Source: Eubacteriales bacterium
GTDB lineage: Bacteria; Bacillota; Clostridia; Oscillospirales; CAG-272
Direction of reading: 5' to 3'
Assembly: GCA_045586105.1 (NCBI GenBank)
Contig: JAZMZS010000135.1
Span: 1 to 38,446 of the forward strand
DNA: 38,446 bases
Shown: piece after piece, positions 12,697-28,377 of the stretch
Position numbering within the stretch: position 1 is the stretch's first letter
How the letters are laid out: each line of letters starts with the position of its first letter
Made by a program: the position numbers and the translations under genes
Notes under the pieces: generated by a model
Database searches by the model: none
What the model was told of the DNA's origin: nothing
Seen by the model: the letters and a program-made list of their open reading frames with translations, nothing else

Positions 12697-12828
12697 CGAA
12701 TACTTCGTTTTTCGCATTCTCACAGACAGCATTTGTTTGTTATTCCGCATCTCACAGCCATGATCCTTAATGGCATATCCACGTTCAAAGCATAAATACA
12801 CACAAAAACTCTAACGGAGGCAATGAGA

Positions 12829-15800
12829 ATGAAAAAAAGCATGATCAGGCTCCTGTCGCTCTTTCTTTGCGCGGTAATGCTCGCCCCCTCTCTCTGCATC
12901 GCGGCTGCTTCGGATACAACCTGCAGAGCGGTCACTTCAAGCGAGACGGCGGTAGTATATCTGCGCGAGGGCGGTACCGGCGACGGAAGCACCGAGGCAT
13001 CCCCAATAGGAACGCTGTCGGCAGCGATGAAGGCGGCGGCAGCATACGGTGTCACGGCAAAGATACAGGTGATAGGCGAGTACCGAATGGACTTTGCCTC
13101 GGGGGCGTTTTCCTCTCCCTCGCACACTAATCTGATCGTGATCTCGGGCAAGGGGACTTACGGAAAGATATACGCAGACACCACAAACGGCGACTACGCA
13201 AAGTGGTATCTCAACGGGGACTTGCAGTTCGAGGATATCGAGCTTGGCTTTTTCCCGTGGCGCTTGTTTTTCATAACGCAGTTTCACGATCTGTATATGC
13301 TTGACGGCATCACGATGACGGAAGGCTCAAACAAGATCGGTATCATCCCCGCGATATCAAGCACGTCAAAGACCTTCGACGGCAAAAAATACAACGGCGA
13401 TTACAAGATAGTATTGCTGTCGGGCGTCTACGACGCCGTTACCCTGTTTGCTCAGGGAGGTGCCAAGGGCGACCTTGCAGGCGGCGTAACGCTGGTATTC
13501 GGAAACACGGCGGAGGCGTGGAGGATACACGTCTCGCACAAGATAGCCAAAAGCGTCGACCGCGCGCATATATACCTTGACGGAGGCGTCGTTCATACGG
13601 GCGTTGCTTACCACGATATTCCGAAGTCCACGACCGACGTCTCGGGGGTCGCCGGAGCGCGCGAAGACTTCAAGATAACGGTTACCGACAACTTTGATAT
13701 AGAAAACAGCTTCACCGTAGGATTCCCAAGCGACCCCGCAAGGTTCGGCGGGATCAGCGGGACGTCCGTTTACCTCGACGGAAGCGCCTGCGTCGGCAAC
13801 GAGGCTCTCGGAAGCTATACGATGGAGATCGAAACGGACGTCTACGACGACGTGACGGCGCACGTAAACGAGGATACCTTCGACGCAAACGGCATCAAGC
13901 GTATCAAGTCCGGAAGCGGACTTCCGCAGGGGCTTGTTCCCCCGTCTTGGGATGAGATGAGCTCACCCGAGAAATATAATTACGGGGACGTTAACGGCGA
14001 CGGAGAGTTCAACAACACGGATATTACGGAGCTTGTGCGCTTTCTCTCGGGCATAGAGGTAAGCGTCAAGGTTCCCGAGCGTGCGGACGTAGACCAAAAC
14101 AACAAAGCGAACAACAGGGACGTGATAGATATGATACTTTCAATAAACGGAATAAAGCCCTCGCCCGACAAGCGTTACTCGCCCGAGGATTACAGGATAA
14201 TATCAAAGGATGAATATACGGACAAGACCACGGCGGCGTTTCTCGGACAGCTCGCGGGCTTTTTGTCGGGACACGAGTTTGCAAAGGGCTCGGACGGCAA
14301 GTGCCTGGTCGCGATGCCGGACGAGAGATTCGTCTACCTCAGGGGTCCTTACGCCGTCGGTGCAAGACCCAAGCATATATATAACGAGGACTCGAAGCTC
14401 TGGGAGGTATGGTTTGACGACGATTTCTCGGTTGACGTTGTCAATCAGTATATTCTCGCGGATATGTATTACAATAAAGGCACCGTCTGCCAGAAGTACA
14501 TAACCGACGGCTGGCTCAACTACGACGTCTGGGACATGGGCGGAGGTCAGCGCAAGGTCGGCGCCTACGGGCTTTCAAAAAGATATAACTATCTGCCTCA
14601 GTTTTTGGGGAATACCGAGACTGAGAACTGGTACAGCTTTATAAGCGAGCCTTATCTCGGCACGGATACCCTCGGAATGAACGCCGCGGGAATGCCCGAG
14701 ACGGCAAGAGAGCTCGCCGCCGTGTTCTCGCAGGCAACGGGAGACAGGGATAATCTTCTTTTTGCGCAGATGTTCGCGGCGATGATATCGAGCGCGTATT
14801 TTGAGGACGACGTCGAGAGCGTCATCAGAGAAGCGTGCAAGGTGCTTCCCGAAGGCTCCTGGCCTACCTATATCGTAGAGGACGTTTTCGAGATCTATAA
14901 AAAGCACCCGAACGACTGGCGCGCGGGCTTTACCGAATATGAAAAGAAGCACTATATCGCGTCTGATATAACCTCCACCGCAGATACGGCGATAAACTGC
15001 GGCTTCGTTCTGCTCGAGCTTCTTTACGGTGAGGGAGATTATATGAAGACCTGCAAAATAGGCTCGCTTGCGGGCTACGATTGCGAGTCCACCTGCGGCA
15101 TCGCGCTTGCGGTGCTCGGCGTAATGGGCGGTACTTCGATCCTTCCCGAGGAGACGAACACCTACGTCTGGCAGGACGGAGAGGGGACTCTTGTCAACCT
15201 CGTAAACCCCGGATGTAAGAACGATCAGGGAGTCTGGATGATAGCGGCAGGTCTTCCTTCAAGAATGAAGATCAGCGAAATTATAGAGAAATACCGCGAG
15301 AACTTCGAGGCGGTGCTGCTTGAGCGGGGAGGTGCCGCCGACGCACATTATTACTATATTCCGCGCGAGGAGCTGCGCGGATACGATACCGTAAAGATAG
15401 AAAACGCACAGCTCGCGGACGGAACGCTCAACGGCTTTAGCGTAAAGGGAGAGGTAAGCGTCACGAAGTACGCATCGGTCAGCCACTACGGAGCAAGGCT
15501 TACGGGAAGCGCGGAGCTTTCACAGAGGGTAAGCGGACTCAAGATCGGAGAGACCTACGCTCTCAGCGCCTATATGAAGGCAACGGGAAGCTCAAGCGCG
15601 TATCTGTTCGTATCCTCCCCCGACGGCTCGGGTGCGGTGTGCGCTTCTGTTCACGCAACCGTCGGAACGCCCAAGTACGAAGCGCACAGCAGCTTCAAGC
15701 GCACGCTGTACTTTACCGCAACAGATACCGAAATGACGATCGGCGTCAGATATAACGGAGCGGACGGCGAGTACGCGGCGGCAGGCTCGTTTGAGCTTAT

Positions 15801-16161
15801 CCGCATAAGCGAGAAGCAAGTGGGCAGCGTAGGCGTTCAAAACGAAAAAGCAGACGGCGTCTACGAGGGCTCGTTCAGCCTTGATATAAACGGAGAGACC
15901 GATAAGGAGGTCTACCTCAAGCTCCGCTTTGCAAATCCGAACGATAAGGTCACGAACGTCGCCCTTACCGTAAACGGAACGAAGTACGCGACCGCGGCGT
16001 TCTATAAAACGAACCCCGCCGACGGCATGGAGAACGCCGATACTATATATATCCCGCTCGTTCTGTCGGTCGGAGAGAATACCGTAAGCGGAAGCTTCAC
16101 GGGAACGCTCAGCATCTTTGACGCAGAGCTGGTCGAGCGGACAGACCGCTTTGAGAATTAA
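12829..16161 (+). CDS. Secreted multidomain protein: beta-helix module + internal dockerin + ADP-ribosylglycohydrolase-like region (tentative) + two CBM-like beta-sandwich modules
   Basis: Signal peptide MKKSMIRLLSLFLCAVMLAPSLCIAAA. GGAGG lies 8 nt upstream of the ATG at 12829, whereas the ATG at 12823 is too close to it. Beta-helix head: VVYLREGGTGDGSTEASPIGTLSAAMKAA. Dockerin: GDVNGDGEFNNTDITELVRFL ... DVDQNNKANNRDVIDMILSI. ARH-like start KTTAAFLGQLAGFLSGHEF and end AGYDCESTCGIALAVLGVMGG lie about 300 aa apart. The C-terminus has CBM-like features (ENAQLADGTLNGF...; NVALTVNGTKYATAAFY). Confidence 0.78.
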   Translation: MKKSMIRLLSLFLCAVMLAPSLCIAAASDTTCRAVTSSETAVVYLREGGTGDGSTEASPIGTLSAAMKAAAAYGVTAKIQVIGEYRMDFASGAFSSPSHTNLIVISGKGTYGKIYADTTNGDYAKWYLNGDLQFEDIELGFFPWRLFFITQFHDLYMLDGITMTEGSNKIGIIPAISSTSKTFDGKKYNGDYKIVLLSGVYDAVTLFAQGGAKGDLAGGVTLVFGNTAEAWRIHVSHKIAKSVDRAHIYLDGGVVHTGVAYHDIPKSTTDVSGVAGAREDFKITVTDNFDIENSFTVGFPSDPARFGGISGTSVYLDGSACVGNEALGSYTMEIETDVYDDVTAHVNEDTFDANGIKRIKSGSGLPQGLVPPSWDEMSSPEKYNYGDVNGDGEFNNTDITELVRFLSGIEVSVKVPERADVDQNNKANNRDVIDMILSINGIKPSPDKRYSPEDYRIISKDEYTDKTTAAFLGQLAGFLSGHEFAKGSDGKCLVAMPDERFVYLRGPYAVGARPKHIYNEDSKLWEVWFDDDFSVDVVNQYILADMYYNKGTVCQKYITDGWLNYDVWDMGGGQRKVGAYGLSKRYNYLPQFLGNTETENWYSFISEPYLGTDTLGMNAAGMPETARELAAVFSQATGDRDNLLFAQMFAAMISSAYFEDDVESVIREACKVLPEGSWPTYIVEDVFEIYKKHPNDWRAGFTEYEKKHYIASDITSTADTAINCGFVLLELLYGEGDYMKTCKIGSLAGYDCESTCGIALAVLGVMGGTSILPEETNTYVWQDGEGTLVNLVNPGCKNDQGVWMIAAGLPSRMKISEIIEKYRENFEAVLLERGGAADAHYYYIPREELRGYDTVKIENAQLADGTLNGFSVKGEVSVTKYASVSHYGARLTGSAELSQRVSGLKIGETYALSAYMKATGSSSAYLFVSSPDGSGAVCASVHATVGTPKYEAHSSFKRTLYFTATDTEMTIGVRYNGADGEYAAAGSFELIRISEKQVGSVGVQNEKADGVYEGSFSLDINGETDKEVYLKLRFANPNDKVTNVALTVNGTKYATAAFYKTNPADGMENADTIYIPLVLSVGENTVSGSFTGTLSIFDAELVERTDRFEN

Positions 16162-16230: not shown

Positions 16231-16755
16231 TCAATTCGGTATACAAAGCTCGGAGATTATCCTTTTGACATTATCACACACGGATGCCGTTCCGTCAAGG
16301 CGTAGTACTTTGCAGCAGAGTGCATCCACCCACGCGTCTATACGGTCCGGCGTTTTATTGCGTGCGTGCTCATAAAAGCGTTCTTCCCGCTCGTACATAT
16401 CTCCGCCGGGCAATACCCTGCCGCCGAATCTATCTGCTGATCTCTGTTTTATTCTTTCCATCCTGATATCTAACGGAGCATCGAGATATACCACAAGCGA
16501 GTAATACGAGTTGATCTCTGCATTCATGTCCCCGTTAACTGCAGAAAATACAAAGCGCGGATGACGCTTTATATCTTCAAGAAGCAATTGCTCGGCCTCT
16601 GTCCGTGTTCTTGCAGAAGCATACGGATCATCGGAAGGTTTAAAATAATAATCTTCCACATCCATATGCTTATAGCCGATTTCCTTTGCAAGAGCGTCAG
16701 CAAGCGTCGTTTTTCCGCTTCCGTTCAGTCCGCAAATACATATGCCGTATCCCAT
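16231..16755 (-). CDS. P-loop NTPase, NMP-kinase-like small ATPase/kinase
   Basis: 174 aa. Walker A CGLNGSGKTTLADALA sits at the extreme N-terminus. Size and layout resemble nucleotide or small-molecule kinases. RBS GAAGGTGA. Its start lies 4 nt after the PHP stop. Confidence 0.75.
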   Translation of the reverse strand: MGYGICICGLNGSGKTTLADALAKEIGYKHMDVEDYYFKPSDDPYASARTRTEAEQLLLEDIKRHPRFVFSAVNGDMNAEINSYYSLVVYLDAPLDIRMERIKQRSADRFGGRVLPGGDMYEREERFYEHARNKTPDRIDAWVDALCCKVLRLDGTASVCDNVKRIISELCIPN

Positions 16756-16759
16756 ACCG

Positions 16760-17605
16760 TCACCTTCCCGCTCTTTCCTTCAAGGCGGCGTACACCTCGT
16801 AGGGGGTATAGAAGCCGTCTGTGGAGGAGAGGGATATCTCCGGCTTTCTGGTGCCGTGCCAATCACTGCCGCCGCTCTCGAGTATTCCGTGGCGGTGTGC
16901 CGTTTCACGGGCAAGAGCATGTGTCTTTGGCGAATACTTAGAGTAGTAGGTCTCCATTCCGTCGAGACCTGCTTTTTTTGCTTTCGGCAAAAAAAGCTCC
17001 AGTTGCTCCGGGGTAAGGCTGAGATAGGGGTGCGCGATAACTGCCGCACCGCCGAGGCTCTTGACGAGCGCTACCGTCTTTATCGCGTCGGGGCGCACGG
17101 GCGGGATATAAAACCCGCGTTTGGGCGAGAGAAGATCCGCAAAAGCCTCGGGAACGCTCGTCACCACACCGTGTGCCATCAGCGACTCGGCTATATGTGC
17201 ACGGTTGACGTTGCCGTGCTCCGAGCGGGCGTATATTTCTTCTATGCTGTCTATCGGGTATCCTGCTTTTTTGAGCGAAGCAACGAGCCTTAAGTTGCTT
17301 TCGTACTTGCTTTTGGCAAGCTCGGCGCAATGAGCACCTACCGCTTCTCTGTGATCCTCCCCGAGGAAAAGTCCGAGCATATGCACTTCACTTCCCTCGT
17401 ATTCGCAGGTAAGCTCCACGCCGCCGATAGTCTCTATTCCGAGCTCCTCTCCCGCGCGCAGAAATTCCCCGATGCCGTCCACGGTGTTATGGTCGGTGAG
17501 GGCGATCGCGCCGATGCCGTTTTTTTTCGCCTCTGCGGCAAGCTCACGCGGGGTGCAGGTGCCGTCGGAGAAGTTCGAGTGCGTATGAAGATCACATATC
17601 CTCAT
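16760..17605 (-). CDS. PHP-domain metal-dependent phosphoesterase (TrpH/YciV-like)
   Basis: MRICDLHTHSNFSDGTCTPRELAAEAKKNGIGAIALTDHNTVDG, later AHP and GGSDWHG. I prefer the ATG at 17605 over the ORF-track start at 17662. It lies 2 nt after the upstream TIM-barrel stop codon. Confidence 0.85.
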   Translation of the reverse strand: MRICDLHTHSNFSDGTCTPRELAAEAKKNGIGAIALTDHNTVDGIGEFLRAGEELGIETIGGVELTCEYEGSEVHMLGLFLGEDHREAVGAHCAELAKSKYESNLRLVASLKKAGYPIDSIEEIYARSEHGNVNRAHIAESLMAHGVVTSVPEAFADLLSPKRGFYIPPVRPDAIKTVALVKSLGGAAVIAHPYLSLTPEQLELFLPKAKKAGLDGMETYYSKYSPKTHALARETAHRHGILESGGSDWHGTRKPEISLSSTDGFYTPYEVYAALKERAGR

Positions 17606-17607
17606 TT

Positions 17608-18477
17608 TCAAAATTCCCCGAACATATCCGACAGGCGCTTTACTGCGGCTGCAAGATCGCAAATTCCGTCGTACATATTTTCAGCCGTCCTGTCCTTGAG
17701 GTAATTATCCGCTTCAAGGGTAAGGTAGCCGCGGTAATTATTCCTTCTCAGCGCATCTATCACAGCACCGAAGTCGATATCCATAGAAAACGGTATCTGG
17801 TGAGAATCGTGCAGCTTGTCGTTGTCGTGGATATGAAGAGCCTTTAGCCTGTGCCCGAGTGCGTCTATAAGCTCGGGGGCAGAGGTGTCAAGCCCTCTCA
17901 TCTCCGCGTGTCCTATATCGAGGCAGGCAACGAGGTATTCGTCATTCACCGCATCAAGATGTGCTACGAAGTTGTCGGGGCGTGAGCATGCGGCGGGAAC
18001 GGCGTGCCCCTCCTCGCGGTTCCAGTTCCACATATTCTCGGTAGCTATCTTTACTCCGTGCTCACGTGCAAACGGAAGCAGGGAGTAAAAGAACTCCGCG
18101 TTCTCCTCGGGTGTTCCGTTGTTTGCGGGGTGAACGATGCAGTACTCCGCACCGACCTCGGCTGAGCATTCTATCGCGCGTTTGAGATAGTCGCGCACGC
18201 ATCCGACGCTCGTAGGAAAGGGAGCGTGGGTCTGGTTGCATATTATCCCGTTGTCATCCGCAACGCGGCGAAGCCTGCGGACGTAGCTAAGATGATCCTT
18301 GCCGGCAAACGGGTGGTCGGTCGGCTTGAGAGCGCCCGTCGCCTTGTCGTACTTTGCCATTTCAAACATTGAAAGGTCGTAAGCGTCAAAGCCTGCGCGT
18401 GCGATATACTCTATAGTTCTCTCCTCACCGATCAGCTTGGAGGCGATCTCGGTCTGAGTGGATACTTTCAGCTTCAT
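17608..18477 (-). CDS. Sugar phosphate isomerase/epimerase (xylose-isomerase-like TIM barrel), copy 1
   Basis: 289 aa. Typical AP_endonuc_2-type pattern: FDAYDL..., HAPF, AEYCIVHP, KIATENM, ACLDIGHA, LHIHDN, YLTLE. Confidence 0.82.
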   Translation of the reverse strand: MKLKVSTQTEIASKLIGEERTIEYIARAGFDAYDLSMFEMAKYDKATGALKPTDHPFAGKDHLSYVRRLRRVADDNGIICNQTHAPFPTSVGCVRDYLKRAIECSAEVGAEYCIVHPANNGTPEENAEFFYSLLPFAREHGVKIATENMWNWNREEGHAVPAACSRPDNFVAHLDAVNDEYLVACLDIGHAEMRGLDTSAPELIDALGHRLKALHIHDNDKLHDSHQIPFSMDIDFGAVIDALRRNNYRGYLTLEADNYLKDRTAENMYDGICDLAAAVKRLSDMFGEF

Positions 18478-18535: not shown

Positions 18536-20407
18536 TTATTTTCCCGTATAGCCTGCGTCAAAGCAAGCAGTATCCATATTGCGCATGATCTCCATTCTGA
18601 AGGCACACGGCCATGCAACGAGCCACTGAGTAGGCGTAAAGAAGTCTCCGCCCGCGCGCATTCTCTCCCAGCGGCAATGGCAGATAGCCTCGTCCTGGCT
18701 TCCCGCAACGCGCGTTCTGCCGTTGATAACGAGGGTACCGTCAGAGATGAGCTGAGTTGCGTTTGCCCAAAAGGCACACGCACGGTCGAACCAGATCTTC
18801 TCTCCCGTAGCCTCCGAAAGCTTGACGAAGGACACTACGTCGTGAAGCGCATAGTGGTCAAGTCCGTTGTGCATCGTGGATACGCCCGTCGAGCCGAAGG
18901 TATCGAAGCCGATCTTGCCAAGGGTGCAAGTATCGTCGTAGATGCAGGAATAATGCCACTGCCAGGAGGATATGTAATAAGCGAGATTACGCGCCATATC
19001 GACGTATTCGCGCTTGCCCGTGACCTCGTAGAGTGCCATACACGCACCGAGCATGGGGGAAGCGGATTCCTTGTCTATCGAGTAGGTGTCAAGCGCACCC
19101 GCGGTGGTATATCCGTCACGGTCAAAGTCGCCGTAATAGAAGCCCATCGCGCGCTCCGCGCTCTCAAGATATTTTGCCTCTCCCGTGCGCTCGTATGCCT
19201 TAAGAAGCGGAGGAACGAGGAAGCATCCGACCGAGCCTGCCTTGGTCAGCAGCGAGCCGTCGGGCTTCCAGCTCTTGGCAAAGCAGCCGTCCGCATCCTG
19301 GTGTGCTACGGCAAAGTCGCATATTCCCATAGCGGCGTCGATACAGTCGGGGCGGTCTATACCGCACTTCGATAGAAGCTCGTAGGTCTCGAAGAAGTGA
19401 AGCGCTCCCGTGCCGAGGTTGCAGGCGTCGAGCTCGTCGTTTACCTTCTGTGCGGGGTCGGGCATGGTATTTGTACGAACGTACATAAGTCCGTTATCGA
19501 GGCGGCAATGTCCGAGCCACGAGTCTATGACCTTGAGCGCCTTGCTCTTGGCGTCTCGGTCTCCCGTCTCAAGGTGGTATTTGAGCAGGGCGTTGGCAAG
19601 AGAGATATTCTGTCCGCACCAGCCAAGCTCGTACTTGGTAGCAAACCAGCGCTTGACGTACTGCGTCTCCTGCGCCTTCCATTCAAGTCCTATAGAAAAG
19701 CCGCAGAAGCCGTCGGGCTCCTCGGTATAGAGGGTCTTTGCGTAGGTGATACCGAGCTTCCAGAGCTTTTTTGAATCAAAGAGGGAGGGGATGGGATGTG
19801 CGTAATACTCCCACGCAAAGTCGTAGAGCGCGTGCCAAGAATGGCGGGGCTTGGTCAAGGGAGCTGTGAAAATCACCGCAAAAAACTCGGTGCGGGGCTC
19901 CATCGTGAAGTAGTGCGCCTCCTTCATCCTCTGCTTGCAAAGTGCATAAGGAGACTCCTCCTCGGGCCAGATGAGGCTGTGGCGCATTCCCTCCTCGGTC
20001 GGATACTGAGAGAAGGACATTGCGATATCAAAGCCGCGGTCTGCCATCAGCGCCGCAGTGTACTTATCGCATTCGGAATACGAGCATGCGGGGATAGAAG
20101 TGCGGGAATAGGAATATATCCACGGCTTGCCCTCGCACTCGTAGCCCGAGTATTCAACACCCTTTCCCCAGCCGTTGCCGTTGTAGTTGAGGGCGGCTAT
20201 CTGGGTGTAGTTCACCTTTTGAAGTACGGTAAAGGACATATTCATTCTGTCCGTGGGAGTGTCGGTCACTCTCTTCCACGCGTATATTCCGTCCGCTATC
20301 ATCTCAAAGCTGTCTTGGGCACCCTCGCACGCTTCTACGCGCAGAAGGGGCGTTTCGTCTGCATAAAGAATATGCGAGCCGTCAGAGTATATTATCTTAC
20401 TTTCCAT
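18536..20407 (-). CDS. Cytoplasmic protein of unassigned family (N-terminal beta-rich region + C-terminal helical-repeat, alpha/alpha-toroid-like region); paralog of 26401-28377
   Basis: 623 aa with no signal peptide. RBS GGAGG lies upstream of the ATG at 20407. It shares collinear conserved blocks with the 26401 protein: WIYSYSRTSIPACSYSECD, ELGWCGQ, GIDRP, TAGALDTYSIDKES, YYISSWQWHY, GVSTMHNGLDHY, QDEAICHCRWER. Confidence 0.8.
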   Translation of the reverse strand: MESKIIYSDGSHILYADETPLLRVEACEGAQDSFEMIADGIYAWKRVTDTPTDRMNMSFTVLQKVNYTQIAALNYNGNGWGKGVEYSGYECEGKPWIYSYSRTSIPACSYSECDKYTAALMADRGFDIAMSFSQYPTEEGMRHSLIWPEEESPYALCKQRMKEAHYFTMEPRTEFFAVIFTAPLTKPRHSWHALYDFAWEYYAHPIPSLFDSKKLWKLGITYAKTLYTEEPDGFCGFSIGLEWKAQETQYVKRWFATKYELGWCGQNISLANALLKYHLETGDRDAKSKALKVIDSWLGHCRLDNGLMYVRTNTMPDPAQKVNDELDACNLGTGALHFFETYELLSKCGIDRPDCIDAAMGICDFAVAHQDADGCFAKSWKPDGSLLTKAGSVGCFLVPPLLKAYERTGEAKYLESAERAMGFYYGDFDRDGYTTAGALDTYSIDKESASPMLGACMALYEVTGKREYVDMARNLAYYISSWQWHYSCIYDDTCTLGKIGFDTFGSTGVSTMHNGLDHYALHDVVSFVKLSEATGEKIWFDRACAFWANATQLISDGTLVINGRTRVAGSQDEAICHCRWERMRAGGDFFTPTQWLVAWPCAFRMEIMRNMDTACFDAGYTGK

Positions 20408-20605: not shown

Positions 20606-21436
20606 TTATTTCCCGTGCTTTTTTTCCTCGGTAGGGGTATTTCCGTAATACTTTACGTACGCTCGGTAAAAGGTGGAGTAATCTCCGTATCCGCTCTCTT
20701 CAAACGCCTCAAGCGCCCCTGCGCCCGAGCGTAGCAGCTCCCTTGCGTATGACAGGCGCTTGGCGGTTATGTATTCTCCGGGAGAGGCTCCTGTTGCCCC
20801 CTTGAATATTCGGCAGAACTGCGACGGGCTCAGATAAAAGTGAGCGGCAAGCGCGGGAGTCGTCAGCCGTTGCTTCAGATGGTCATTTACGTACGCGACC
20901 ATCTCCTTCTCCCGGCTTGACGGCGGTAAGTCGGTCGTTCCCCTCGCTTCGTACGCGTCGCACAAAGCACCGAGAAGACAGATCAGGTTCGTCGTGATCT
21001 TAAGCTCCCGCCCATAGGCATCCCTCTCCGAATCGCACATCTCCTCAAACAGCCTGCGGATATGATGGTCTCCAAGCTCGGAGGAGGTGTAGACGTTGTC
21101 CTGTCCGAGCGAGCGCTCGGTGAAGGGCGCAAGAAGTCTGAGCTCGGGGTCGAAGCGCTCGACCAGCGATGCGGGAAAGTTGATATTGAATCTTTCGTAC
21201 GGGGTCGCTTCCAGAATCTTCGGCTTGTGTGACTCACTCGGACGGATGACGAGAATGCAGCCCGGGTAGAGCGCGTAGCTCGAGCCCTCAACGAGGTAGT
21301 TTACCTTTCCCTTGATAAACAGATATATTTCGTAGCTCCGATGAACGTGCATCGGAAAAGCGGCATCCTGCGGAACGTCGTCTATCGCGTGCTTGACGTA
21401 TATTCCGTTTTTTTTGTATTCGTTTAGCATATTCAT
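20606..21436 (-). CDS. AraC/XylS family transcriptional regulator (cupin + HTH)
   Basis: 276 aa. Cupin half: FPMHVHRSYEIYLFIKGKVNYLVEGSSYALYPGCILVIRPSESH. HTH half: LAAHFYLSPSQFCRIFKGATGASPGEYITAKRLSYARELL...GYGDYSTFYRAYVKYYGNTP. Confidence 0.88.
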   Translation of the reverse strand: MNMLNEYKKNGIYVKHAIDDVPQDAAFPMHVHRSYEIYLFIKGKVNYLVEGSSYALYPGCILVIRPSESHKPKILEATPYERFNINFPASLVERFDPELRLLAPFTERSLGQDNVYTSSELGDHHIRRLFEEMCDSERDAYGRELKITTNLICLLGALCDAYEARGTTDLPPSSREKEMVAYVNDHLKQRLTTPALAAHFYLSPSQFCRIFKGATGASPGEYITAKRLSYARELLRSGAGALEAFEESGYGDYSTFYRAYVKYYGNTPTEEKKHGK

Positions 21437-21452
21437 ACTTCAATTATAATCG

Positions 21453-21493: not shown

Positions 21494-21522
21494 TTGAAAT
21501 GCGTTTTTATTTATTTTATACT
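21494..21522 (+). promoter_or_regulatory. Candidate sigma-A promoter of the TIM-TIM-esterase-oxidoreductase operon
   Basis: TTGAAA (21494-21499), a 17-nt spacer, then TATACT (21517-21522). It lies about 40 nt upstream of the ATG at 21566. Confidence 0.5.
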
Positions 21523-21565
21523 ATTAAGTAGAGAAATTATTTTTTTCAAGCGAAGGAGATACGGT

Positions 21566-22312
21566 ATGAATATTGGTGCACAGATGTACACGGTGCGCGA
21601 GCACTGCAAGACTCTCGAGGATCTTTCCCTCACTCTCAAGAAGCTCGCCGATATAGGCTACAGATACGTTCAGGTCTCGGGAACCTGCTCATACGACGCG
21701 GCTTGGCTTGACGCAGAGCTGAAGAAGAACGGACTTACCTGCGTCATTACGCACACCCCGTCAAAGGAGCTCACCGGAAATACAGACAAGGTAATAGCCG
21801 ATCACGGAATACTCGGATGCAAGTATATCGGCCTTGGATATTACGGATACGAAAACCCCGAGCAAAAGCTCGCATCCTTTCTCAACACCTACACGCCCGT
21901 AGCCGAGAAGATCGCAGAGGCGGGCAAGTACTTTATGTATCACCATCATGCGGCTGAATTCCAGAAGATAAATGGCAAGACCGTGCTCGAGCACATAGCG
22001 GACAGCATCCCCTCCTCGAAGCTCGGATTCACGCTTGACACGTACTGGGTGCAGACGGGAGGAGCAAACCCCTGCGACATGCTTGAGCTTCTCTCGGGAA
22101 GAGTCCCCTGCATACACCTTAAGGACTACGCGTTCGGTCAGAAGATGGCTGTGCTCGGAGAAGGCAACATCAACTTTGACCGCGTGTTCGTAAAGGCTGA
22201 GGAAGCCGGATGCGAATATATGCTCGTAGAGCAGGACGACTGCGGCGGAGAGGATCCGTTCGAGTGTCTTAGCCGCAGCTACGCCTACCTGAAGGCAAGG
22301 GGGCTTGAATAA
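21566..22312 (+). CDS. Sugar phosphate isomerase/epimerase (xylose-isomerase-like TIM barrel), copy 2
   Basis: RBS GAAGGAGA with the ATG at 21566 (MNIGAQMYTVREHCKTLEDL...). Supporting blocks: GYRYVQVSG, FMYHHHAAEF, FTLDTYW, IHLKDY, YMLVEQD. The ORF-track start at 21494 coincides with the -35 box. Confidence 0.83.
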   Translation: MNIGAQMYTVREHCKTLEDLSLTLKKLADIGYRYVQVSGTCSYDAAWLDAELKKNGLTCVITHTPSKELTGNTDKVIADHGILGCKYIGLGYYGYENPEQKLASFLNTYTPVAEKIAEAGKYFMYHHHAAEFQKINGKTVLEHIADSIPSSKLGFTLDTYWVQTGGANPCDMLELLSGRVPCIHLKDYAFGQKMAVLGEGNINFDRVFVKAEEAGCEYMLVEQDDCGGEDPFECLSRSYAYLKARGLE

Positions 22313-23136
22313 TGAGATTCAAGCTTTGTGCTTTTGCAGACGAGGCTGACAGCAGCATTGACAAGCAGATAGAAGCCATGCGCGACAACGGCATAGGTTA
22401 TCTTGAGATACGCGGAGTTGACGGTGAAAACATATCCGAGATTTCAACGGAAAAGGCGAAAGAAGTACGGAGAAAGCTTGACGAAAGCGGTATTTCCGTC
22501 TGGTCGCTCGGATCTCCCTACGGAAAGATCAAGATAACCGACCCTATCGAGCCGCACCTTGACAAATTCAAACGCGGTCTTGAGCTTGCCGATATTCTTG
22601 GGGCAAAAAACATACGCCTTTTCAGTTTCTTCGTACCTAAGGACGAGGCGGAAGCGTACTCAGACGAGGTCATGGACAGAATGAGCAAGCTCGTCTCGGC
22701 GGCAAAGGGAAGCGGCATTCTGCTCTGCCACGAGAACGAAAAGGGTATTTTCGGTGACGTAGCGGACAGATGCGCGCAGATCCACCGGACCTTCCCTGAG
22801 ATCTCGGCGGTCTTCGATCCCGCAAACTTCGTTCAATGCGGACAGGACACCGAAAAGGCCTGGGAGAAGCTCGCGCCTTTCGTAAAATATATGCACATAA
22901 AGGATGCTCTTCCCGACGGCAGCATCGTGCCTGCGGGCAAGGGCATGGGAAATATCCCGTGGCTGCTTGACAGATACGGGGGCGAGATACTTACTCTTGA
23001 GCCTCATCTGTCGGTATTCAAGGGTCTTGATGCTCTCGAGGGCGGCGAAAAAACGAAAATAGACGAATACAAGTACCCCTCTCAAAGAGCGGCGTTCGAT
23101 GCGGCGGTATCGGCGCTGAAGGAAATAATAGAATGA
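22312..23136 (+). CDS. Sugar phosphate isomerase/epimerase (xylose-isomerase-like TIM barrel), copy 3
   Basis: 274 aa. Supporting blocks: GIGYLEIRG, NIRLFSFF, LLCHENEKGIFGD, VFDPANF, MHIKDA, LTLEPHL. Its ATG overlaps the previous stop by 1 nt (TAATG). Confidence 0.83.
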   Translation: MRFKLCAFADEADSSIDKQIEAMRDNGIGYLEIRGVDGENISEISTEKAKEVRRKLDESGISVWSLGSPYGKIKITDPIEPHLDKFKRGLELADILGAKNIRLFSFFVPKDEAEAYSDEVMDRMSKLVSAAKGSGILLCHENEKGIFGDVADRCAQIHRTFPEISAVFDPANFVQCGQDTEKAWEKLAPFVKYMHIKDALPDGSIVPAGKGMGNIPWLLDRYGGEILTLEPHLSVFKGLDALEGGEKTKIDEYKYPSQRAAFDAAVSALKEIIE

Positions 23137-24200
23137 TAAATGACGAGCTGAAAAAGAGAGATCTCCCTCCGCTGAAGCGCCGTGAGGAAATGGCAGATAT
23201 ACTGCAGAAAAATGTATACGGATATTTGCCGAGGACGGAGTATTCGCTCACCTGCTCCGAGCCGAGATATATCGAACGAAGATACGCCTGCGGAAACGTC
23301 GCGTATTCGATAACGGAGCTTACCGTAACGGTAAAGAACGAGAGCCGTACCTTCAAGGTAGACAGGCTCCTTCACTGCGATGGCAAAAAGCGTCCCTTGG
23401 TGATAAACATAGCTTTTCATCCCCTGAGCAATTCGCAATACTTCCCAATTGAGGAAATGTCGGAATACGATGCGGACTTTCTCTCCTTCTGCTACAAGGA
23501 GGTGACGAGCGATGACGGCAATTTTGATGACGGGCTCGCTCCTCTGCTGACAAGCAAGGATGCACCCTGCGGAAAGCTCGCGATATGGGCGTGGGCGGCG
23601 CAGCGCGTGCTTGACTACGGGCTGACGCTCCCCGGCACGGACAGGAAAAACACCGCGGTCGCGGGACACTCACGCCTCGGCAAGACGGCGCTATTGTGCG
23701 CGATGACCGACGAGAGATTCAAATACGTTCTCTCAAACGCATCGGGATGTATGGGCGCGAGCCTCGCCCACGGAAGCACGGGAGAAGCATCGTCGGAGAA
23801 GGGCGCAGCGCGCCGGGAGAATTACCGCGATATAATAAAGAACTTCCCCTTCTGGTTCTCTCCCGAATTTGCAGATCACGCAACGGAAACCGTATCACCT
23901 CTGTTCGATCAGCATTATCTTGTCGCCGCGATAGCTCCGAGATTCGTGCTCGCAGGCTCGTGCAGCCTCGACGCGTGGGCGGACCCTCAGTCGGAGCAGC
24001 TCTGCTGTGCGGCGGCAAGCCCCGCGTGGGAGATGCTCGGAGAGGACGGCTTTATATGCGATCGGCTCGCTTCTCCCGGTGAGGCATTCTTATCCGGACG
24101 GGTCGGTTACTTCATGATAGAGTCGAAGCACTTTATGTCCCGCCACAGCTGGCGGCACCTCATGGATTTTATAGCTCTGCACAAAAATGAAAAAATATAA
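23133..24200 (+). CDS. Alpha/beta hydrolase resembling CE15 glucuronoyl esterase, no signal peptide
   Basis: 355 aa. VAGHSRLGKTAL resembles the CE15 nucleophile motif G-C-S-R-x-G-K (Ser codon 23670-23672). Later blocks: SLDAWADPQSE, and a late histidine context (IESKHFMSRHSW). ATGA overlap with the upstream gene. Confidence 0.6.
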   Translation: MINDELKKRDLPPLKRREEMADILQKNVYGYLPRTEYSLTCSEPRYIERRYACGNVAYSITELTVTVKNESRTFKVDRLLHCDGKKRPLVINIAFHPLSNSQYFPIEEMSEYDADFLSFCYKEVTSDDGNFDDGLAPLLTSKDAPCGKLAIWAWAAQRVLDYGLTLPGTDRKNTAVAGHSRLGKTALLCAMTDERFKYVLSNASGCMGASLAHGSTGEASSEKGAARRENYRDIIKNFPFWFSPEFADHATETVSPLFDQHYLVAAIAPRFVLAGSCSLDAWADPQSEQLCCAAASPAWEMLGEDGFICDRLASPGEAFLSGRVGYFMIESKHFMSRHSWRHLMDFIALHKNEKI

Positions 24201-24216
24201 TCAAGGAGATAAAAAA

Positions 24217-25386
24217 ATGGAAAAGATCAAGCTCGGTATCCTCGGCATGGGAAACATAGGCAGACTGCACCTTGATAACGTGCTCGGAGGACACTGCCCC
24301 TCGGTTGAGGTAAGCGCAGTATGCGATATTGACGAAAAGAAGCTCGGATACGCAAAAGAAAAGCTCCCCGATGCAAGGTACTTCAGCGACGCGATAGAAA
24401 TGCTCGATTCGGGCGCCGTTAACGCCGTTATCGTAGCAGTACCTCACTACGATCATCCCACCTACGCGATCGAGGCGTTCAAGCGCGGCATCAACGTAAT
24501 CATCGAAAAGCCCGCAGGAGTCTACACGCGTCAGGTAAGAGAGATGAACGAGGCTGCCGACCGTGCGGGAGTAAAATTCGGCATCATGTTCAACCAGCGT
24601 ACCGATCCTCTCTACGTAAAGGCGCACGAGATCGTACAGAGCGGACAGCTCGGCGAGCTCAAGCGCCTCGTATGGATAGTCACGAACTGGTACAGAACCC
24701 AGGCTTACTACGATTCGGGAAGCTGGCGTGCTACCTGGAACGGTGAGGGCGGCGGAGTTCTTCTCAATCAGGCTCCTCACAATCTCGATCTCTGGCAGTG
24801 GATATTCGGAATGCCCAAGCGCGTACGTGCGTTTTGTGAGCTCGGAAAGTACCACAACGTTGCGATAGAGGATGACGTTACCATCTTCGGAGAATACGAA
24901 AACGGCGCGACCGCTACCTTCATCACTACCACGGGCGAGGCTCCGGGAACCAACCGTCTCGAGATATCGGGCGACCGCGGAAAGATCGTGATCGAGGGCG
25001 GCAAGCTCAAATGGTGGAAGCTCGAGACTCCCGAAAGAGAGTTCTGCTACACCTGCAAAAAGGGCATGGCAATGCCCGCTACCACCTGCGAGGAATTCAC
25101 CTTCGACAGCGTAAACGGCCACGCCACGGTGCTCGAGACCTTTGCCCGTTCGATCATCGACGGAACTCCCCTGATAGCGGACGGACGAGAGGGTCTGAAT
25201 TCTCTCTCCATCTCGAACGCAGCGTATATCTCCACCTGGACGGGTAATTTTTCCGATATAAACGTCGACGAGGAGCTCTTCGAGCAGCACCTCAAGGAGC
25301 TCTGCGCAAGCGAGGTAGAAAAAAAGAAGGATTCGGAGCCCGAATCCCTCGAATCCCTGCGCGAGCGCTGGAAGGTAAGGTGGTAA
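24217..25386 (+). CDS. Gfo/Idh/MocA family NAD(P)-dependent oxidoreductase
   Basis: Rossmann start KLGILGMGNIGRLH and EKP motif NVIIEKPAG. C-terminal alpha/beta domain blocks: GGGVLLNQAPHNLDLWQWIFG, EDDVTIFGEYENGATATF. RBS AAGGAGA lies upstream of the ATG at 24217. The ATG at 24187 lies inside the preceding gene. Confidence 0.9.
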   Translation: MEKIKLGILGMGNIGRLHLDNVLGGHCPSVEVSAVCDIDEKKLGYAKEKLPDARYFSDAIEMLDSGAVNAVIVAVPHYDHPTYAIEAFKRGINVIIEKPAGVYTRQVREMNEAADRAGVKFGIMFNQRTDPLYVKAHEIVQSGQLGELKRLVWIVTNWYRTQAYYDSGSWRATWNGEGGGVLLNQAPHNLDLWQWIFGMPKRVRAFCELGKYHNVAIEDDVTIFGEYENGATATFITTTGEAPGTNRLEISGDRGKIVIEGGKLKWWKLETPEREFCYTCKKGMAMPATTCEEFTFDSVNGHATVLETFARSIIDGTPLIADGREGLNSLSISNAAYISTWTGNFSDINVDEELFEQHLKELCASEVEKKKDSEPESLESLRERWKVRW

Positions 25387-25436: not shown

Positions 25437-26231
25437 TCAATTATTCCTCGTTCTTCTCAGGTATTCCCTCGGGTTCATTCCCGTGTCCTTGAGAAAGGCG
25501 CGGTTGAAGGTCCGAATAGACGAAAACCCGGAGCCGAGCGCCGCGGCGGTGACGCTCTCTCCGTCCTCAAGCCTGGCGCACGCGTCCCTGATCCTCAAAT
25601 GATTGATAAAATCGTTGAACCTTACCTTCAGCTTTGACGAAAAGAAGCGTGAGATATGATAACGGTCGATATAAAGATCTCGTGACAGGGCGGCTAGCGT
25701 CAGAGGCGCTCTGAAATTCTTCATGCAATAATCAATAATACGCCGTTCCGTGGACGGAGCGCTCGACGGCGCGTCCTCAAGGGTAAGCATAGACAGTACG
25801 GTACTGAGAAGTACTGCAAAATACCCGCGCGCTATCTGTTTGTCGTAGAAGGTACGGCGGCGGTTATGCTCGTATATCCCTTCAAATGCCCGCAGCAGCT
25901 CTGCGGTCCTCCCGCCCGATCCGATCACGGGCTCGGCGGGGAGCTTGGATGCGAAGATCTCCGCGAGCGGCGGACATATATCGGCGGGAAACAGGAAGGT
26001 ATAGCAGCACAGATCTCTTTCGTTCGAGTAAGAGTGTATTCTGTTCGGGAAAGCAACGAACACGTCCCCCTCTCGAAGCTCGTATTCTGAAAAATCCACC
26101 GAAGCGGTGCAGCTGCCGCGAAGAACGGCGACGAGCTCCACGGTCTCGTGATAATGAGGGGGAAAATCGATATACTCCCTCTTCCACGTCAAAACTCTTC
26201 CCGTCTTTTCACTCTCATAAGTTACCGACAT
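25437..26231 (-). CDS. AraC/XylS family transcriptional regulator (cupin + HTH)
   Basis: 264 aa from the ATG at 26231 (RBS GGAGGA). Cupin half: YIDFPPHYHETVELVAVLRGSCTASVDFSEYELREGDVFVAFPNRIHSY. HTH half: LSRDLYIDRYHISRFFSSKLKVRFNDFINHLRIRDACARL...GFSSIRTFNRAFLKDTGMNPREY. The ORF-track extension to 26690 has no support. Confidence 0.88.
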   Translation of the reverse strand: MSVTYESEKTGRVLTWKREYIDFPPHYHETVELVAVLRGSCTASVDFSEYELREGDVFVAFPNRIHSYSNERDLCCYTFLFPADICPPLAEIFASKLPAEPVIGSGGRTAELLRAFEGIYEHNRRRTFYDKQIARGYFAVLLSTVLSMLTLEDAPSSAPSTERRIIDYCMKNFRAPLTLAALSRDLYIDRYHISRFFSSKLKVRFNDFINHLRIRDACARLEDGESVTAAALGSGFSSIRTFNRAFLKDTGMNPREYLRRTRNN

Positions 26232-26290
26232 TGTCTTATCCTCCGTTTGCATAAACGCAATAAATGGCCAAAACAATTTCACTATTTGTC

Positions 26291-26318
26291 TTGTATTATA
26301 GCACCAATCTGCTATAAT
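26291..26318 (+). promoter_or_regulatory. Candidate promoter for the second unknown-family gene
   Basis: TTGTAT (26291-26296), a 16-nt spacer, then the extended -10 TGCTATAAT (26310-26318). It is flanked by two copies of AAATGGCCA (26262-26270 and 26359-26367). Confidence 0.5.
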
Positions 26319-26400
26319 GTAAATACAAAACTGTTTTTCGGCGCTGTTTCTTTGCAAAAAATGGCCATTGTGTTTTATCGATAACGATAAGGAGATTCTT

Positions 26401-28377
26401 ATGACTAATGCTAAACATGCAAGGCTTGATCTTTTTACCCTCGACGCAACCAAAGCCTTAGAGCTGTGCGCACCCATTATAGAGGTGAACGGCAAGGAGC
26501 TGAGGATGTCTCCCGTATGCTCGGCAAAGCTCTCTGCCGAATACGAAGGACACGAGATGACAGCACGCGACGTTATCACTCCGATGGATGACGAGCTGTA
26601 TCTTCTCGAGCGCACCGTCACTAACGTGAGCCGCAGCACGCGCACCTTCAAGCTGATAACCGAGCTTGAGACCGCATACGCTCCGACCAAGTATAATATT
26701 CCCTGCGTAAGTTACGGCGGAAACGCCCGCTCGGACGGTAAGGAATACAAAGGCACCGAGCTTGACGGCGAGACGTGGATATACGCGTACGACAGAACGG
26801 GAATACCCTCGTGCACGGAGGCTGAGTGCGACGGGATCGTTACGGCAGTCTTTGCCTCCGAGAAAAGCGAGGATTCGCTGAGATCCTCATGTGCGTTCGT
26901 GTCTCTTCCCGACGGAAGGATGGCACACCGCATCTACTACCCCGTGACGGAGGCTCCTTACACCTACTGCGACCACGATATCATGTCTCCGAGATACGAC
27001 GAATATCTCACTCTCAAGCCCCGTGAAAGCTTTTCGGTCGTTTCCTATATCTATATAGGCAAGCCGAAATGGAAGAACTACGGCATGGCAAACGTGCTCG
27101 ACGCGGCGCTCGGACTGTATAACAACCTACGCGCTCCGTCCCTTTCACCCGAGGAGGTATGGGATACCTCTATCGCGTGGTCCGACTTTCTTCTCTGTGA
27201 TTATCACGGAGCGAAGATGTTCCGCAATATGTTCCGCCACGCAAAGGAGGGAGACGGTCTTTACGCTCCCTACGAGATCTTTGAGGCGGGATGGTCGGGA
27301 CAGTGCATGCAGCAGGCGAGAACGTTCATTCTCGAATACAAGCGCTCGGGCATCAAGCGTTATCTTGACGATGCGCTGTCCTGCCTTGACGCGTGGGTAA
27401 AAACGCAAAAGGACTGCGGGCTCTTCCCTACGAATTACGCAAGGCATATAAACGGCAAATACCTGCCAAACGACGTCTGCAACTATTCCTGGGGAGCGAT
27501 CGAGATGACCAGATCCTATTCTCTGTTGAAAGGTATCGGCATCGACCGTCCCGAATACGCTGACTTTGCCCGCAGGGTGCTTGATTTTCTCATTTCTCAG
27601 TACACAGACGAGGGAGGCTTCGGTCTTACATACACGGTGTTTGGAGAAAAGGTATCCGACGGCGGCTCGATCGGCGGCTTTACCTGCATGGCGCTCGTGG
27701 AATTCTACAAGCTCACGGGAGAGAGTCGTTACCTTGATATGGCAATACGCTCCTTTGATATGTACTTCAAGCGTGATCTTGACGATTTTATATGCACGGC
27801 GGGAGCTATCGACTGTGCCTGCATAGACAAGGAAACGGCATATCCCTTTATCTACACGGCGCTTGAGCTTTACGAGATAACGAAAGAGCCGATATATCTC
27901 GAGCGTGCCGAGAAGGCGGCGTACTACTTCTTCTCCTGGGCGTATCACTTCGACGCTCTGTACCCCGACGATTGTAACTTTAACGAATACGGCTACTACA
28001 CCTCGGGCGGCACTGCCGTATCTACCCAGCATCCCGCTATCGACCCGTGGGGTGAGATCGCGGTACCCGATTTCGTTAAAATAGCAAGATACACGGGTGA
28101 CGAGCGCTGGATAAAGCGTGCAAAGATGATGTGGAACAACGCGATCCTCTGTATCACCACGGACAAGGAGGGCGACGTCAAGCTTGGACACAAGCGCCCG
28201 TACGGTGCGCAAAGCGAGGCGTTCTTCCAGTGCAGATGGACAAGAAGCTACCGCCCCGACTGCGAGCAGCGCGGACACATAAACGACATGTTCGTGGGAT
28301 GGGTAAGTGCATACCGGCTCTCGGCGCTTGAGAGGATCACAAGGGTATGCCCCGAGGGAGCGGATCTTCTCAGATAA
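26401..28377 (+). CDS. Cytoplasmic protein of unassigned family; paralog of 18536-20407
   Basis: 658 aa from the ATG at 26401 (RBS AAGGAGA), with no signal peptide. Conserved blocks match the paralog: WIYAYDRTGIPSCTEAECD, EAGWSGQ, GIDRP, TAGAIDCACIDKET, YYFFSWAYHF, AVSTQHPAIDPW, QSEAFFQCRWTR. Confidence 0.8.
   Translation: MTNAKHARLDLFTLDATKALELCAPIIEVNGKELRMSPVCSAKLSAEYEGHEMTARDVITPMDDELYLLERTVTNVSRSTRTFKLITELETAYAPTKYNIPCVSYGGNARSDGKEYKGTELDGETWIYAYDRTGIPSCTEAECDGIVTAVFASEKSEDSLRSSCAFVSLPDGRMAHRIYYPVTEAPYTYCDHDIMSPRYDEYLTLKPRESFSVVSYIYIGKPKWKNYGMANVLDAALGLYNNLRAPSLSPEEVWDTSIAWSDFLLCDYHGAKMFRNMFRHAKEGDGLYAPYEIFEAGWSGQCMQQARTFILEYKRSGIKRYLDDALSCLDAWVKTQKDCGLFPTNYARHINGKYLPNDVCNYSWGAIEMTRSYSLLKGIGIDRPEYADFARRVLDFLISQYTDEGGFGLTYTVFGEKVSDGGSIGGFTCMALVEFYKLTGESRYLDMAIRSFDMYFKRDLDDFICTAGAIDCACIDKETAYPFIYTALELYEITKEPIYLERAEKAAYYFFSWAYHFDALYPDDCNFNEYGYYTSGGTAVSTQHPAIDPWGEIAVPDFVKIARYTGDERWIKRAKMMWNNAILCITTDKEGDVKLGHKRPYGAQSEAFFQCRWTRSYRPDCEQRGHINDMFVGWVSAYRLSALERITRVCPEGADLLR

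Follow-up and report, generated by a model that had tools for sequence, protein, structure and literature searches.

Oxidation followed by elimination and hydration is a recently described alternative to the Koshland glycosidases. Its glucuronide branch so far rests on a single fosmid, P2B11, which bears a beta-thioglucuronidase cluster and whose account by Nasseri et al. appeared in Nature in 2024. This fosmid derives from a Collinsella-like Gram-positive gut bacterium and carries the genes Iso1-Oxido1-Oxido2-Iso2, whose products cleave both alpha- and beta-glucuronides via a 3-keto intermediate, need Oxido1 plus at least one ‘isomerase’, and are stimulated by Mn2+/Co2+. Oxido2 is reported to affect the rate only slightly; glucosides are not cleaved, while sulfoquinovosides and substrates with 6-PO4 or 6-SO4 are cleaved slowly (Nasseri et al., bioRxiv 10.1101/2024.03.25.586180). 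Here we analyse an operon at positions 21566–25386 of a 38,446-nucleotide contig from a Eubacteriales bacterium (JAZMZS010000135.1, assembly GCA_045586105.1; the whole stretch is hereafter called the window). Read as open reading frames (ORFs), the operon comprises four genes in the order TIM1, TIM2, CE15L and OXI, encoding two xylose-isomerase-like TIM barrels, a CE15-family alpha/beta-hydrolase and a Gfo/Idh/MocA oxidoreductase. On balance, we consider it probable that this operon, controlled by an AraC-family protein, removes glucuronic acid in the cytoplasm in the manner of P2B11 and without a glycoside hydrolase, with CE15L serving as a de-esterifying front-end. What the analysis shows is homology, retention of catalytic residues, the build of the operon and, in relatives, a genomic link to glucuronate catabolism; from these we infer which chemistry the organism performs, how TIM1 and TIM2 share the work, and what CE15L does and on which natural substrate.

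The oxidoreductase and its TIM-barrel partners

The last gene of the operon, OXI (24217–25386, plus strand; PF01408, PF22725 and PF02894), is its sole Gfo/Idh/MocA gene. In a sequence search of the PDB, the top solved relative of the encoded protein was 8tdi, ‘P2B11 Glucuronide-3-dehydrogenase’ (E 2.9e-100, 339 bits), followed at 117–120 bits by 3q2i and 3q2k, which we take to be WlbA UDP-GlcNAcA 3-dehydrogenases, also C3 oxidants of a uronic sugar. Pairwise protein comparison gave 44.6% identity to P2B11-Oxido1 over 395 amino acids (aa; E 9e-101) and only 31% to P2B11-Oxido2. Five of the six active-site residues named for P2B11-Oxido1 (Asn147, Trp179, Arg181, Tyr185, Asn205 and His209; bioRxiv 10.1101/2024.03.25.586180) are identical, with W179, R181, Y185, N205 and H209 corresponding to W158, R160, Y164, N184 and H188 of OXI. 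For the sixth, the NAD-contacting Asn147, the surrounding FNQR motif is identical (N126/Q127 in OXI), but the P2B11 sequence reads Asn146/Gln147, offset by one; all four P2B11 protein sequences were taken from a machine-read PDF of the paper’s supplement and may contain small errors. From these comparisons we infer that OXI is the counterpart of P2B11-Oxido1, a glucuronide 3-dehydrogenase.

An earlier note, made from the letters of this DNA, had proposed checking the oxidoreductase for orthology to DgpA, LgdA, BT2158/BT2159 and IolG, and none of these assignments held, all scores falling far under the family cut-offs or the score of 8tdi. Against NCBIfam equivalog models, OXI reached 43.5 bits for BT_2158 (cut-off 750), 35.8 for BT_2159 (650), 57.5 for the LgdA model LevoglcsnDh (650) and 110.7 for IolG (355), and the UDP-GlcNAc 3-dehydrogenase model likewise scored far under its cut-off. 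Among the other PDB matches, inositol dehydrogenases gave 47–71 bits, DgpA structures 52–64, LgdA (6a3f) 36.5 and the AL3-type structures 8tdf and 8tdh about 36.

TIM1 (21566–22312, plus strand) and TIM2 (22312–23136, plus strand) both belong to PF01261, with 48.7 and 68.6 bits, respectively. Each has its own full-length counterpart in P2B11: TIM1 matches Iso2 (30.5% identity over 285 aa, E 6e-31) and TIM2 matches Iso1 (34.8% over 296 aa, E 3e-39), while the cross-pairings are weak (E 0.04 and 5e-4). The pairing is therefore one-to-one, in agreement with the view of the earlier note that the two barrels are distinct.

The closest solved relatives of TIM1 are AtOGE (8bvk, E 5.5e-23) and the AL1/BT1 structures 8tcs, 8tcd and 8tct (1e-20 to 1e-17). 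The metal ligands of AtOGE, His132, Asp163, His189 and Glu233, and its base His134 (PMC10628242) align with the TIM1 motifs YHHH, LDTYW, IHLKD and LVEQD. Judged by these residues, TIM1 has the His/Asp/His(/Glu) metal site and the H-x-H base motif of a 3-keto-glycoside 1,2-lyase, that is, of the beta-eliminase type. TIM2 has no close solved structure, its best PDB match being 3tva at E 9e-4; it is homologous to the TIM1 family (profile–profile probability 95%) and carries E-N-E (Glu-Asn-Glu) where TIM1 and the eliminases carry H-x-H, which places it outside the AtOGE/AL1/BT1 subfamily, in a distinct subfamily shared with P2B11-Iso1. No DgpB/DgpC or LgdB chain was present among the PDB matches of either barrel at E <= 0.1.

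A recurrent module and its link to glucuronate catabolism

Relatives were collected in two scans, the locus counts of which are samples rather than censuses. A metagenome scan anchored on OXI yielded 396 confirmed relatives, of which 80 loci with 55–74% identity were examined, the window proteins being compared by tblastn; a scan of GTDB species genomes anchored on CE15L yielded at least 582 loci, all in Clostridia, of which 80 were kept. Additionally, at least 8000 protein-cluster matches to the glucuronide module scored at E <= 1e-20.

Across the OXI-anchored loci, TIM2 lies directly upstream of OXI in 59 of the 66 with at least 1 kb of upstream sequence, and a gene resembling the AraC gene of the window is divergent upstream of TIM2-OXI in 40 of the 50 with at least 3 kb. 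TIM1 is found in only 6 of 80, and in 6 loci a second OXI-like gene stands in tandem with the first. What is conserved is AraC / TIM2-OXI, with TIM1 occasional and CE15L a rare accessory; such a core agrees with the published sufficiency of Oxido1 and one ‘isomerase’. The full four-gene set recurs in the close relatives L083, L084, L168 and L169 and in the distant L039, which answers in the affirmative the question, raised by the earlier note, of whether the genes co-occur in other genomes. Both recurrences, of the core and of the full set, place the arrangement of the operon beyond chance. The compact AraC / TIM2-OXI module is thus widespread in gut and rumen Clostridia.

Downstream of OXI, 7 of 58 OXI-anchored loci encode a membrane protein with weak similarity to EamA. 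In L081–L084, OXI is likewise followed by a multi-pass membrane protein of 272 aa that has no counterpart in the window (for example, at 9194–10012 of L082), in L083 and L084 directly after TIM1-TIM2-CE15L-OXI; it has a weak EamA/DMT match (21 bits, under the cut-off) and no NCBIfam match, and a role as transporter for the pathway is possible.

UxaC, UxuB and UxuA form the glucuronate-specific branch of hexuronate catabolism, which passes through mannonate. In L168 and L169 the arrangement is AraC / TIM1-TIM2-CE15L-OXI-UxuA-UxuB, with CE15L 72% and 66% identical to the window copy, respectively, and with OXI 83% and AraC 51% identical in L168. The two genes after OXI encode a mannonate dehydratase (UxuA, 444.9 bits, cut-off 191) and a D-mannonate oxidoreductase of the short-chain dehydrogenase/reductase type (UxuB, 434 bits, cut-off 281). 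At 285–9170 of L151, the genes UxaC-UxuA-UxuB-PfkB kinase-TIM2-TIM1-OXI-OXI share one strand, so that all genes of the glucuronate pathway are joined there to the oxidative module, OXI being present as two tandem paralogs. The module likewise has UxuA and/or UxuB beside it in L157, L159, L160, L163, L165, L167 and L070. In L059 (2–4380), CE15L itself lies between UxuA, which is cut by the contig end, and UxuB; a PF12708 protein (pectate-lyase-like/RHGA-epimerase fold) follows CE15L, a GDSL esterase follows UxuB, and the 6.8-kb contig contains no OXI module.

The wiring of the module into UxaC/UxuA/UxuB catabolism supports glucuronate as the released sugar independently of homology, and thus gives independent genomic support for the physiological substrate. 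Together with the match of OXI to 8tdi, the pairing of TIM2 with Iso1 and of TIM1 with Iso2, and the eliminase relatives of TIM1, it bears out the proposal of the earlier note that the locus is an oxidation–elimination operon.

The embedded CE15-family protein and competing explanations

CE15L (23133–24200, plus strand) matches the glucuronyl esterase family PF22244 (88 bits, cut-off 27) and, in sequence searches, the solved CE15 structures with E values from 1.7e-33 to 6e-07 and 24–26% identity. When its AlphaFold2 (AF2) model (pLDDT 89, pTM 0.91) was compared with PDB folds, the 42 highest-ranking matches were all CE15 enzymes, led by Phocaeicola vulgatus PvCE15 (8qcl; TM score 0.81, root-mean-square deviation 2.8 Å), and the CE15-like label given by the earlier note stands. 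In an alignment of 87 family members, S180, R181, K184, Q260 and H333 never vary, D280 is shared by 86 and W282 by 83, while the position of the canonical Glu, Ala203 in CE15L, is variable. A non-canonical arrangement of the acid has been demonstrated by mutagenesis in MZ0003 and TtCE15A, and in CE15 enzymes, which hydrolyse esters of the glucuronoyl carboxyl, Arg, Lys and Trp bind the carboxylate, the 3-OH/4-O-methyl and the 2-OH (PMC6484129). With its CE15 fold, retained Ser, His and non-canonical Asp, and retained Arg, Lys, Gln and Trp, CE15L is predicted to be a credible active glucuronoyl esterase. As a separate observation, genes of this family form tandem arrays of two to three copies in Acutalibacteraceae metagenome-assembled genomes (MAGs; L005, L006, L007 and L008, for example at 4546–7845 of L006), the copies lying about 18 nt apart and being 43–46% identical to that of the window.

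CE15L is intimately joined to the genes on both sides. It overlaps TIM2 by ATGA (23133–23136) and is separated from OXI by 16 nt (24201–24216) that contain the Shine-Dalgarno sequence AAGGAGA (24203–24209, plus strand, found by sequence reading), a spacing that indicates co-translation with both neighbours. Beyond close relatives, it occurs with module genes in differing orders: TIM2-TIM1-CE15L-OXI in L039, TIM2-TIM1-(gap)-CE15L in L023, TIM1-Oxido2-like-CE15L in L046, UxuB-Oxido2-like-OXI-TIM2 at 4 kb from CE15L in L070, and OXI at 5.5 kb from CE15L in L012. The CE15L proteins of these five loci are only 38–43% identical to the window copy, and each has its nearest kin among copies found away from the module, so that the association arose, or was kept, independently in several lineages. 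This argues for repeated recruitment of CE15L, and some lineages would accordingly have drawn a cytoplasmic CE15 esterase into the module. Across the 80 CE15L-anchored loci, moreover, the neighbour that recurs most often is a Gfo/Idh/MocA oxidoreductase (7 loci).

No signal peptide could be recognised by inspection of the four operon N-termini, and all four proteins are therefore predicted to be cytoplasmic. We propose that CE15L would hydrolyse C6-carboxyl esters (of methyl, benzyl or lignin-type alcohols) on imported oligosaccharides or glycosides to the free carboxylate, upon which OXI, with tightly bound NAD, would oxidise the C3-OH of the glucuronide to the 3-ketone. A metal-dependent TIM-barrel lyase would then abstract H2 and expel the C1 aglycone, leaving a 2-hydroxy-3-keto-glycal uronate. 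If it works like AL1/BT1 and AtOGE, TIM1 probably serves as lyase for beta-linked substrates, and TIM2 would probably take the other anomer. A TIM barrel, most likely TIM2, would rehydrate the glycal to 3-keto-glucuronate, although this sharing of tasks between the two barrels is speculative. Return of the hydride by OXI would finally yield glucuronate for the UxaC/UxuB/UxuA route, so that the net reaction would be a hydrolysis, redox-neutral and free of external cofactor turnover. The role assigned to CE15L follows from three points, namely that P2B11 enzymes need substrates negatively charged at C6, that CE15 enzymes cleave esters of just that carboxyl, and that CE15L is translationally coupled to the module. 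CE15L thus probably removes the ester group from glucuronoyl esters and so provides the carboxylate that the dehydrogenase needs, turning an unreactive neutral ester into a substrate; candidate natural esters would include lignin–carbohydrate fragments and methyl-esterified uronic oligosaccharides, among others.

Several observations weigh against this reading. CE15L was found by tblastn in none of the 80 OXI-anchored metagenome loci, and module genes lie beside it in only about 5 of the 80 CE15L-anchored loci, so that most members of its family work in other contexts and the four genes can no longer be regarded as a conserved set. CE15L is missing from L081 and L082, although the OXI protein of L082 is identical to that of L083; DNA alignment of L083 (3848–8506) with L082 (6420–10012) reveals a clean indel, in which the stretch from the TIM2 stop to the OXI start corresponds to CE15L. 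The segment of OXI and the downstream membrane protein is 98.6% identical between the two loci, the flanks being 87–91% identical, which suggests recent exchange of this segment. Present in one strain and absent from a related one, CE15L resembles an accessory cassette that the core function can do without. The literature searched (CE15 with MocA or sugar phosphate isomerase, and 3-keto-glucuronide terms) contained no link between CE15 and this pathway, nor did we find there a characterised member of the cytoplasmic CE15L clade. The operon itself has no counterpart of Oxido2, no transporter, and none of the UxuA/UxuB genes found in relatives. An identity of 44.6% between OXI and Oxido1 does not guarantee equal sugar specificity, and the alpha/beta split between TIM1 and TIM2 is drawn by analogy only, TIM2 having E-x-E where the eliminases have H-x-H.

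The explanation that survives best alongside the proposed pathway keeps the core as a P2B11-type system and makes CE15L an unrelated, cassette-like passenger between TIM2 and OXI that acts on another ester. The presence/absence polymorphism between L083 and L082 and the empty OXI-anchored sample fit it, as do the roughly 75 of 80 CE15L loci that lack the module. The CE15L family has no dominant partner, its neighbours being heterogeneous and including housekeeping genes and, over the 80 loci, a GPH-type MFS_2 transporter (5), GH2 (4), GH78 (3) and GH36 (3). We nevertheless regard a passenger as rather unlikely. The ATGA junction and the short gap before OXI point to co-translation; the association recurs with divergent CE15L lineages in differing gene orders (L039, L023, L046 and L070); the glucuronate-binding residues of characterised CE15 enzymes are all kept; and CE15L lies between UxuA and UxuB in L059. 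Five co-locations within 10 kb were moreover observed where about 0.6 per 80 loci would be expected by chance, a rough estimate that assumes one module per genome of about 2.5 Mb.

It is improbable that the substrates of the module are not glucuronides but other uronic or 6-anionic glycosides, for instance galacturonides, sulfoquinovosides or glycosides with a 6-phospho or 6-sulfo group. The slow side activities of P2B11, the modest identity of OXI to Oxido1 and the promiscuity of some bacterial CE15 enzymes (as stated in the PDB title of 6ehn) would allow it, but the linked genes UxaC, UxuA and UxuB are those of the glucuronate branch, not altronate (galacturonate) or sulfoglycolysis genes, and CE15L keeps the Lys, Trp and Arg with which CE15 enzymes touch a uronate of gluco configuration (PMC6484129). 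We find it very improbable that OXI and the TIM barrels form an isomerase/dehydrogenase side-route of hexuronate catabolism for a free sugar acid or keto-sugar, with no glycosidic cleavage. Fusion of the module to genes for free glucuronate in L151, L168 and L169, and a TIM-barrel superfamily rich in isomerases, epimerases and dehydratases, speak for such a route; against it, the homologous P2B11 proteins cleave glucuronides in vitro, the nearest characterised relatives of TIM1 are eliminases on 3-keto-glycosides, and UxaC/UxuB/UxuA would handle free glucuronate with no extra enzymes, as is general pathway knowledge. The inositol or keto-sugar operon of the IolG/IolE/IolI type that the earlier note offered as a mundane alternative is effectively refuted by sequence comparison, the IolG match above and an IolE match of 39 bits (NCBIfam cut-off 290) being sub-threshold by far, the PDB relatives of IolG trailing the glucuronide 3-dehydrogenase, no other iol genes occurring in the window, and relatives tying the module to Uxu genes.

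Returning to glucuronide cleavage with CE15L as front-end, it is conceivable, and we put it forward tentatively, that CE15 and the 3-keto module together constitute a dedicated cytoplasmic route for esterified glucuronides that needs no hydrolytic glucuronidase (GH67, GH115, GH2 or GH79). Its substrates, with the same reservation, could be methyl- or aryl-alkyl-esterified (4-O-methyl)glucuronoyl oligosaccharides from lignin–carbohydrate complexes, arabinogalactan or pectin. If so, this would be the first physiological role for a large intracellular CE15 clade of gut Clostridia, with at least 582 loci among GTDB species representatives, and glucuronoyl esters would survive to intracellular processing. 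Should the esterase feed the pathway, CE15 enzymes, hitherto viewed as secreted lignin–carbohydrate de-linkers, would gain an intracellular catabolic role, and gut turnover of glucuronides (plant glucuronoxylan, arabinogalactan, possibly host or drug glucuronides) could not be predicted from hydrolytic alpha/beta-glucuronidase genes alone.

Gene layout, flanking genes and comparison with known systems

The remaining features of the operon confirm the layout described in the earlier note, of four coupled genes (TAATG, ATGA and a 16-nt gap with a ribosome-binding site) and a divergent AraC gene, in both positions and junctions. TIM1 and TIM2 meet at TAATG (22310–22314), and the ATG of TIM1 is preceded by GAAGGAGA at 6 nt upstream. 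A sigma-70-like promoter candidate, TTGAAA-17-TATACT (21494–21522, plus strand), lies 44 nt 5′ of the TIM1 start and has 10 of 12 matches in a consensus scan, being a consensus match only. The divergent AraC-family gene (20606–21436, minus strand; Pfam HTH_18, AraC_binding and Cupin_2) combines a cupin sensor domain with a helix-turn-helix and is the likely regulator of the operon. A repeat search of the AraC–TIM1 intergenic region gave no direct repeats and no convincing operator, and an Rfam scan of the window found tRNA only, with no riboswitch in the operon leader. The AraC and TIM1 genes both start ATGAATAT, and a perfect 10-nt inverted repeat, ATATTCATAC / GTATGAATAT, spans their start codons at 21429–21438 and 21564–21573; it may be a coincidence or a translational/regulatory signal.

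The window, with rpmH-rnpA-yidD-yidC-jag-mnmE, dockerin proteins, GH31, GH43 and GH3, is an origin-proximal region of a clostridial fibre degrader, most closely related to Acutalibacteraceae/Oscillospirales MAGs of ruminant and human gut origin. The origin-proximal set occupies 1540–6346, beginning with a tRNA (1540–1610, minus strand) ahead of rpmH, and the first 2 kb of the window have a low GC content of 41.5%. Two large dockerin proteins whose catalytic modules are unusual are encoded on the plus strand, one of 706 aa with a BNR/sialidase-like domain (8121–10241) and one of 1112 aa with an ADP-ribosylglycohydrolase domain (12823–16161).

The operon is flanked by two genes for alpha/alpha proteins of about 620–670 aa (18536–20407, minus strand, and 26368–28377, plus strand), which belong to an unnamed family of ‘hypothetical proteins’. 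The earlier note had pointed to them as neighbouring paralogs resembling alpha/alpha toroids; they are true paralogs (29% identity, E 7e-76), but relatives do not keep them beside the module, and L082 and L169 each have one some 5.5 kb off behind housekeeping genes. The AF2 model of the second (pLDDT 90.8) combines an N-terminal beta-sandwich with an (alpha/alpha)6 barrel, and its best PDB fold match is the PL27 L-rhamnose-alpha-1,4-D-glucuronate lyase BACCELL_00875 (E 3.4e-13), of the same length and architecture, with a TM score of only 0.43; a sequence profile did not detect this similarity, and a glucuronate-related lyase role is a lead only. Downstream of the first paralog and on the same strand (16231–18477, minus) are three genes, encoding a third xylose-isomerase-like TIM barrel (best match MJ1311 3wqo, 1.6e-9; CbiR/fructoselysine-epimerase-like), a PHP-domain phosphoesterase (3′,5′-bisphosphate phosphatase/RNase RNM-like, under the cut-off) and a P-loop kinase-like protein. 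A 417-aa AraC ORF (25437–26690, minus strand) is convergent with OXI and extends over the beginning of the gene that follows. Within it, a strong promoter-like TTTACA-17-(TG)TATAAT (26323–26295) points to a later AraC start; the protein would then have about 280 aa and its gene would diverge from that of the second alpha/alpha paralog.

Among the described systems, P2B11 comes closest. The operon has counterparts of Oxido1 (OXI), Iso1 (TIM2) and Iso2 (TIM1); in both systems all proteins are cytoplasmic, here by prediction, and a DUF1080 protein is absent, with no DUF1080 match among the scanned ORFs of the window; and the chemistry predicted here from the genes alone, C3 oxidation, 1,2-elimination, hydration and reduction on glucuronides, is the same. 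Unlike P2B11, the operon is ordered Iso2-Iso1-CE15-Oxido1, lacks Oxido2, which does occur as Oxido2-like genes in the relatives L046 and L070, and has a divergent AraC gene where P2B11 was described without a nearby regulator; it comes from a dockerin-encoding clostridial degrader of plant fibre, P2B11 from a Collinsella-like bacterium. It also embeds a CE15 esterase, none being mentioned for P2B11 (bioRxiv 10.1101/2024.03.25.586180). To that extent the earlier note was right that the esterase falls outside described systems, whereas the four genes do not make up a conserved set.

The BT2156–BT2160 and Alistipes AL1–AL5 systems, from the same study as P2B11, follow the same stepwise logic but are largely periplasmic, use a DUF1080 lyase/hydratase and act on neutral glucosides. 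The Agrobacterium tumefaciens pathway (AtOGE 8bvk, AtHYD and a Gfo reductase; PMC10628242) supplies in AtOGE the best solved relative of TIM1, which keeps its Mn ligands and catalytic His, and its second ‘sugar phosphate isomerase’, acting as hydratase, parallels the pair of TIM1 and TIM2. It differs in oxidising neutral beta-glucosides with an FAD glycoside 3-dehydrogenase and in having no esterase. Of the CE15 esterases, PvCE15 (8qcl), OtCE15A, MZ0003 (6ehn) and TtCE15A (6hsw) have their fold in common with CE15L (TM scores 0.75–0.81), which also has the GHSRxGK nucleophile motif, the Arg/Lys/Gln/Trp glucuronate contacts and the catalytic His, and, as in MZ0003 and TtCE15A, an acidic residue two residues before Trp in the non-canonical position. 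In contrast to characterised CE15 enzymes, it is a single-domain protein, predicted to be cytoplasmic, with no signal peptide, carbohydrate-binding module or dockerin; it is shorter than the bacterial ones (about 355 aa), has an extra low-confidence loop at residues 204–225, and belongs to a large uncharacterised clostridial clade, here encoded in a cytoplasmic catabolic operon.

The variant that the earlier note thought new is new in bearing a CE15 gene, while its core lies nearer to the P2B11 glucuronide cluster, which the note had not named, and is to that degree less novel than implied. By sequence, the operon core is a new member of the P2B11-type system, set apart by its CE15 esterase, its AraC gene, its gene order and its missing Oxido2.

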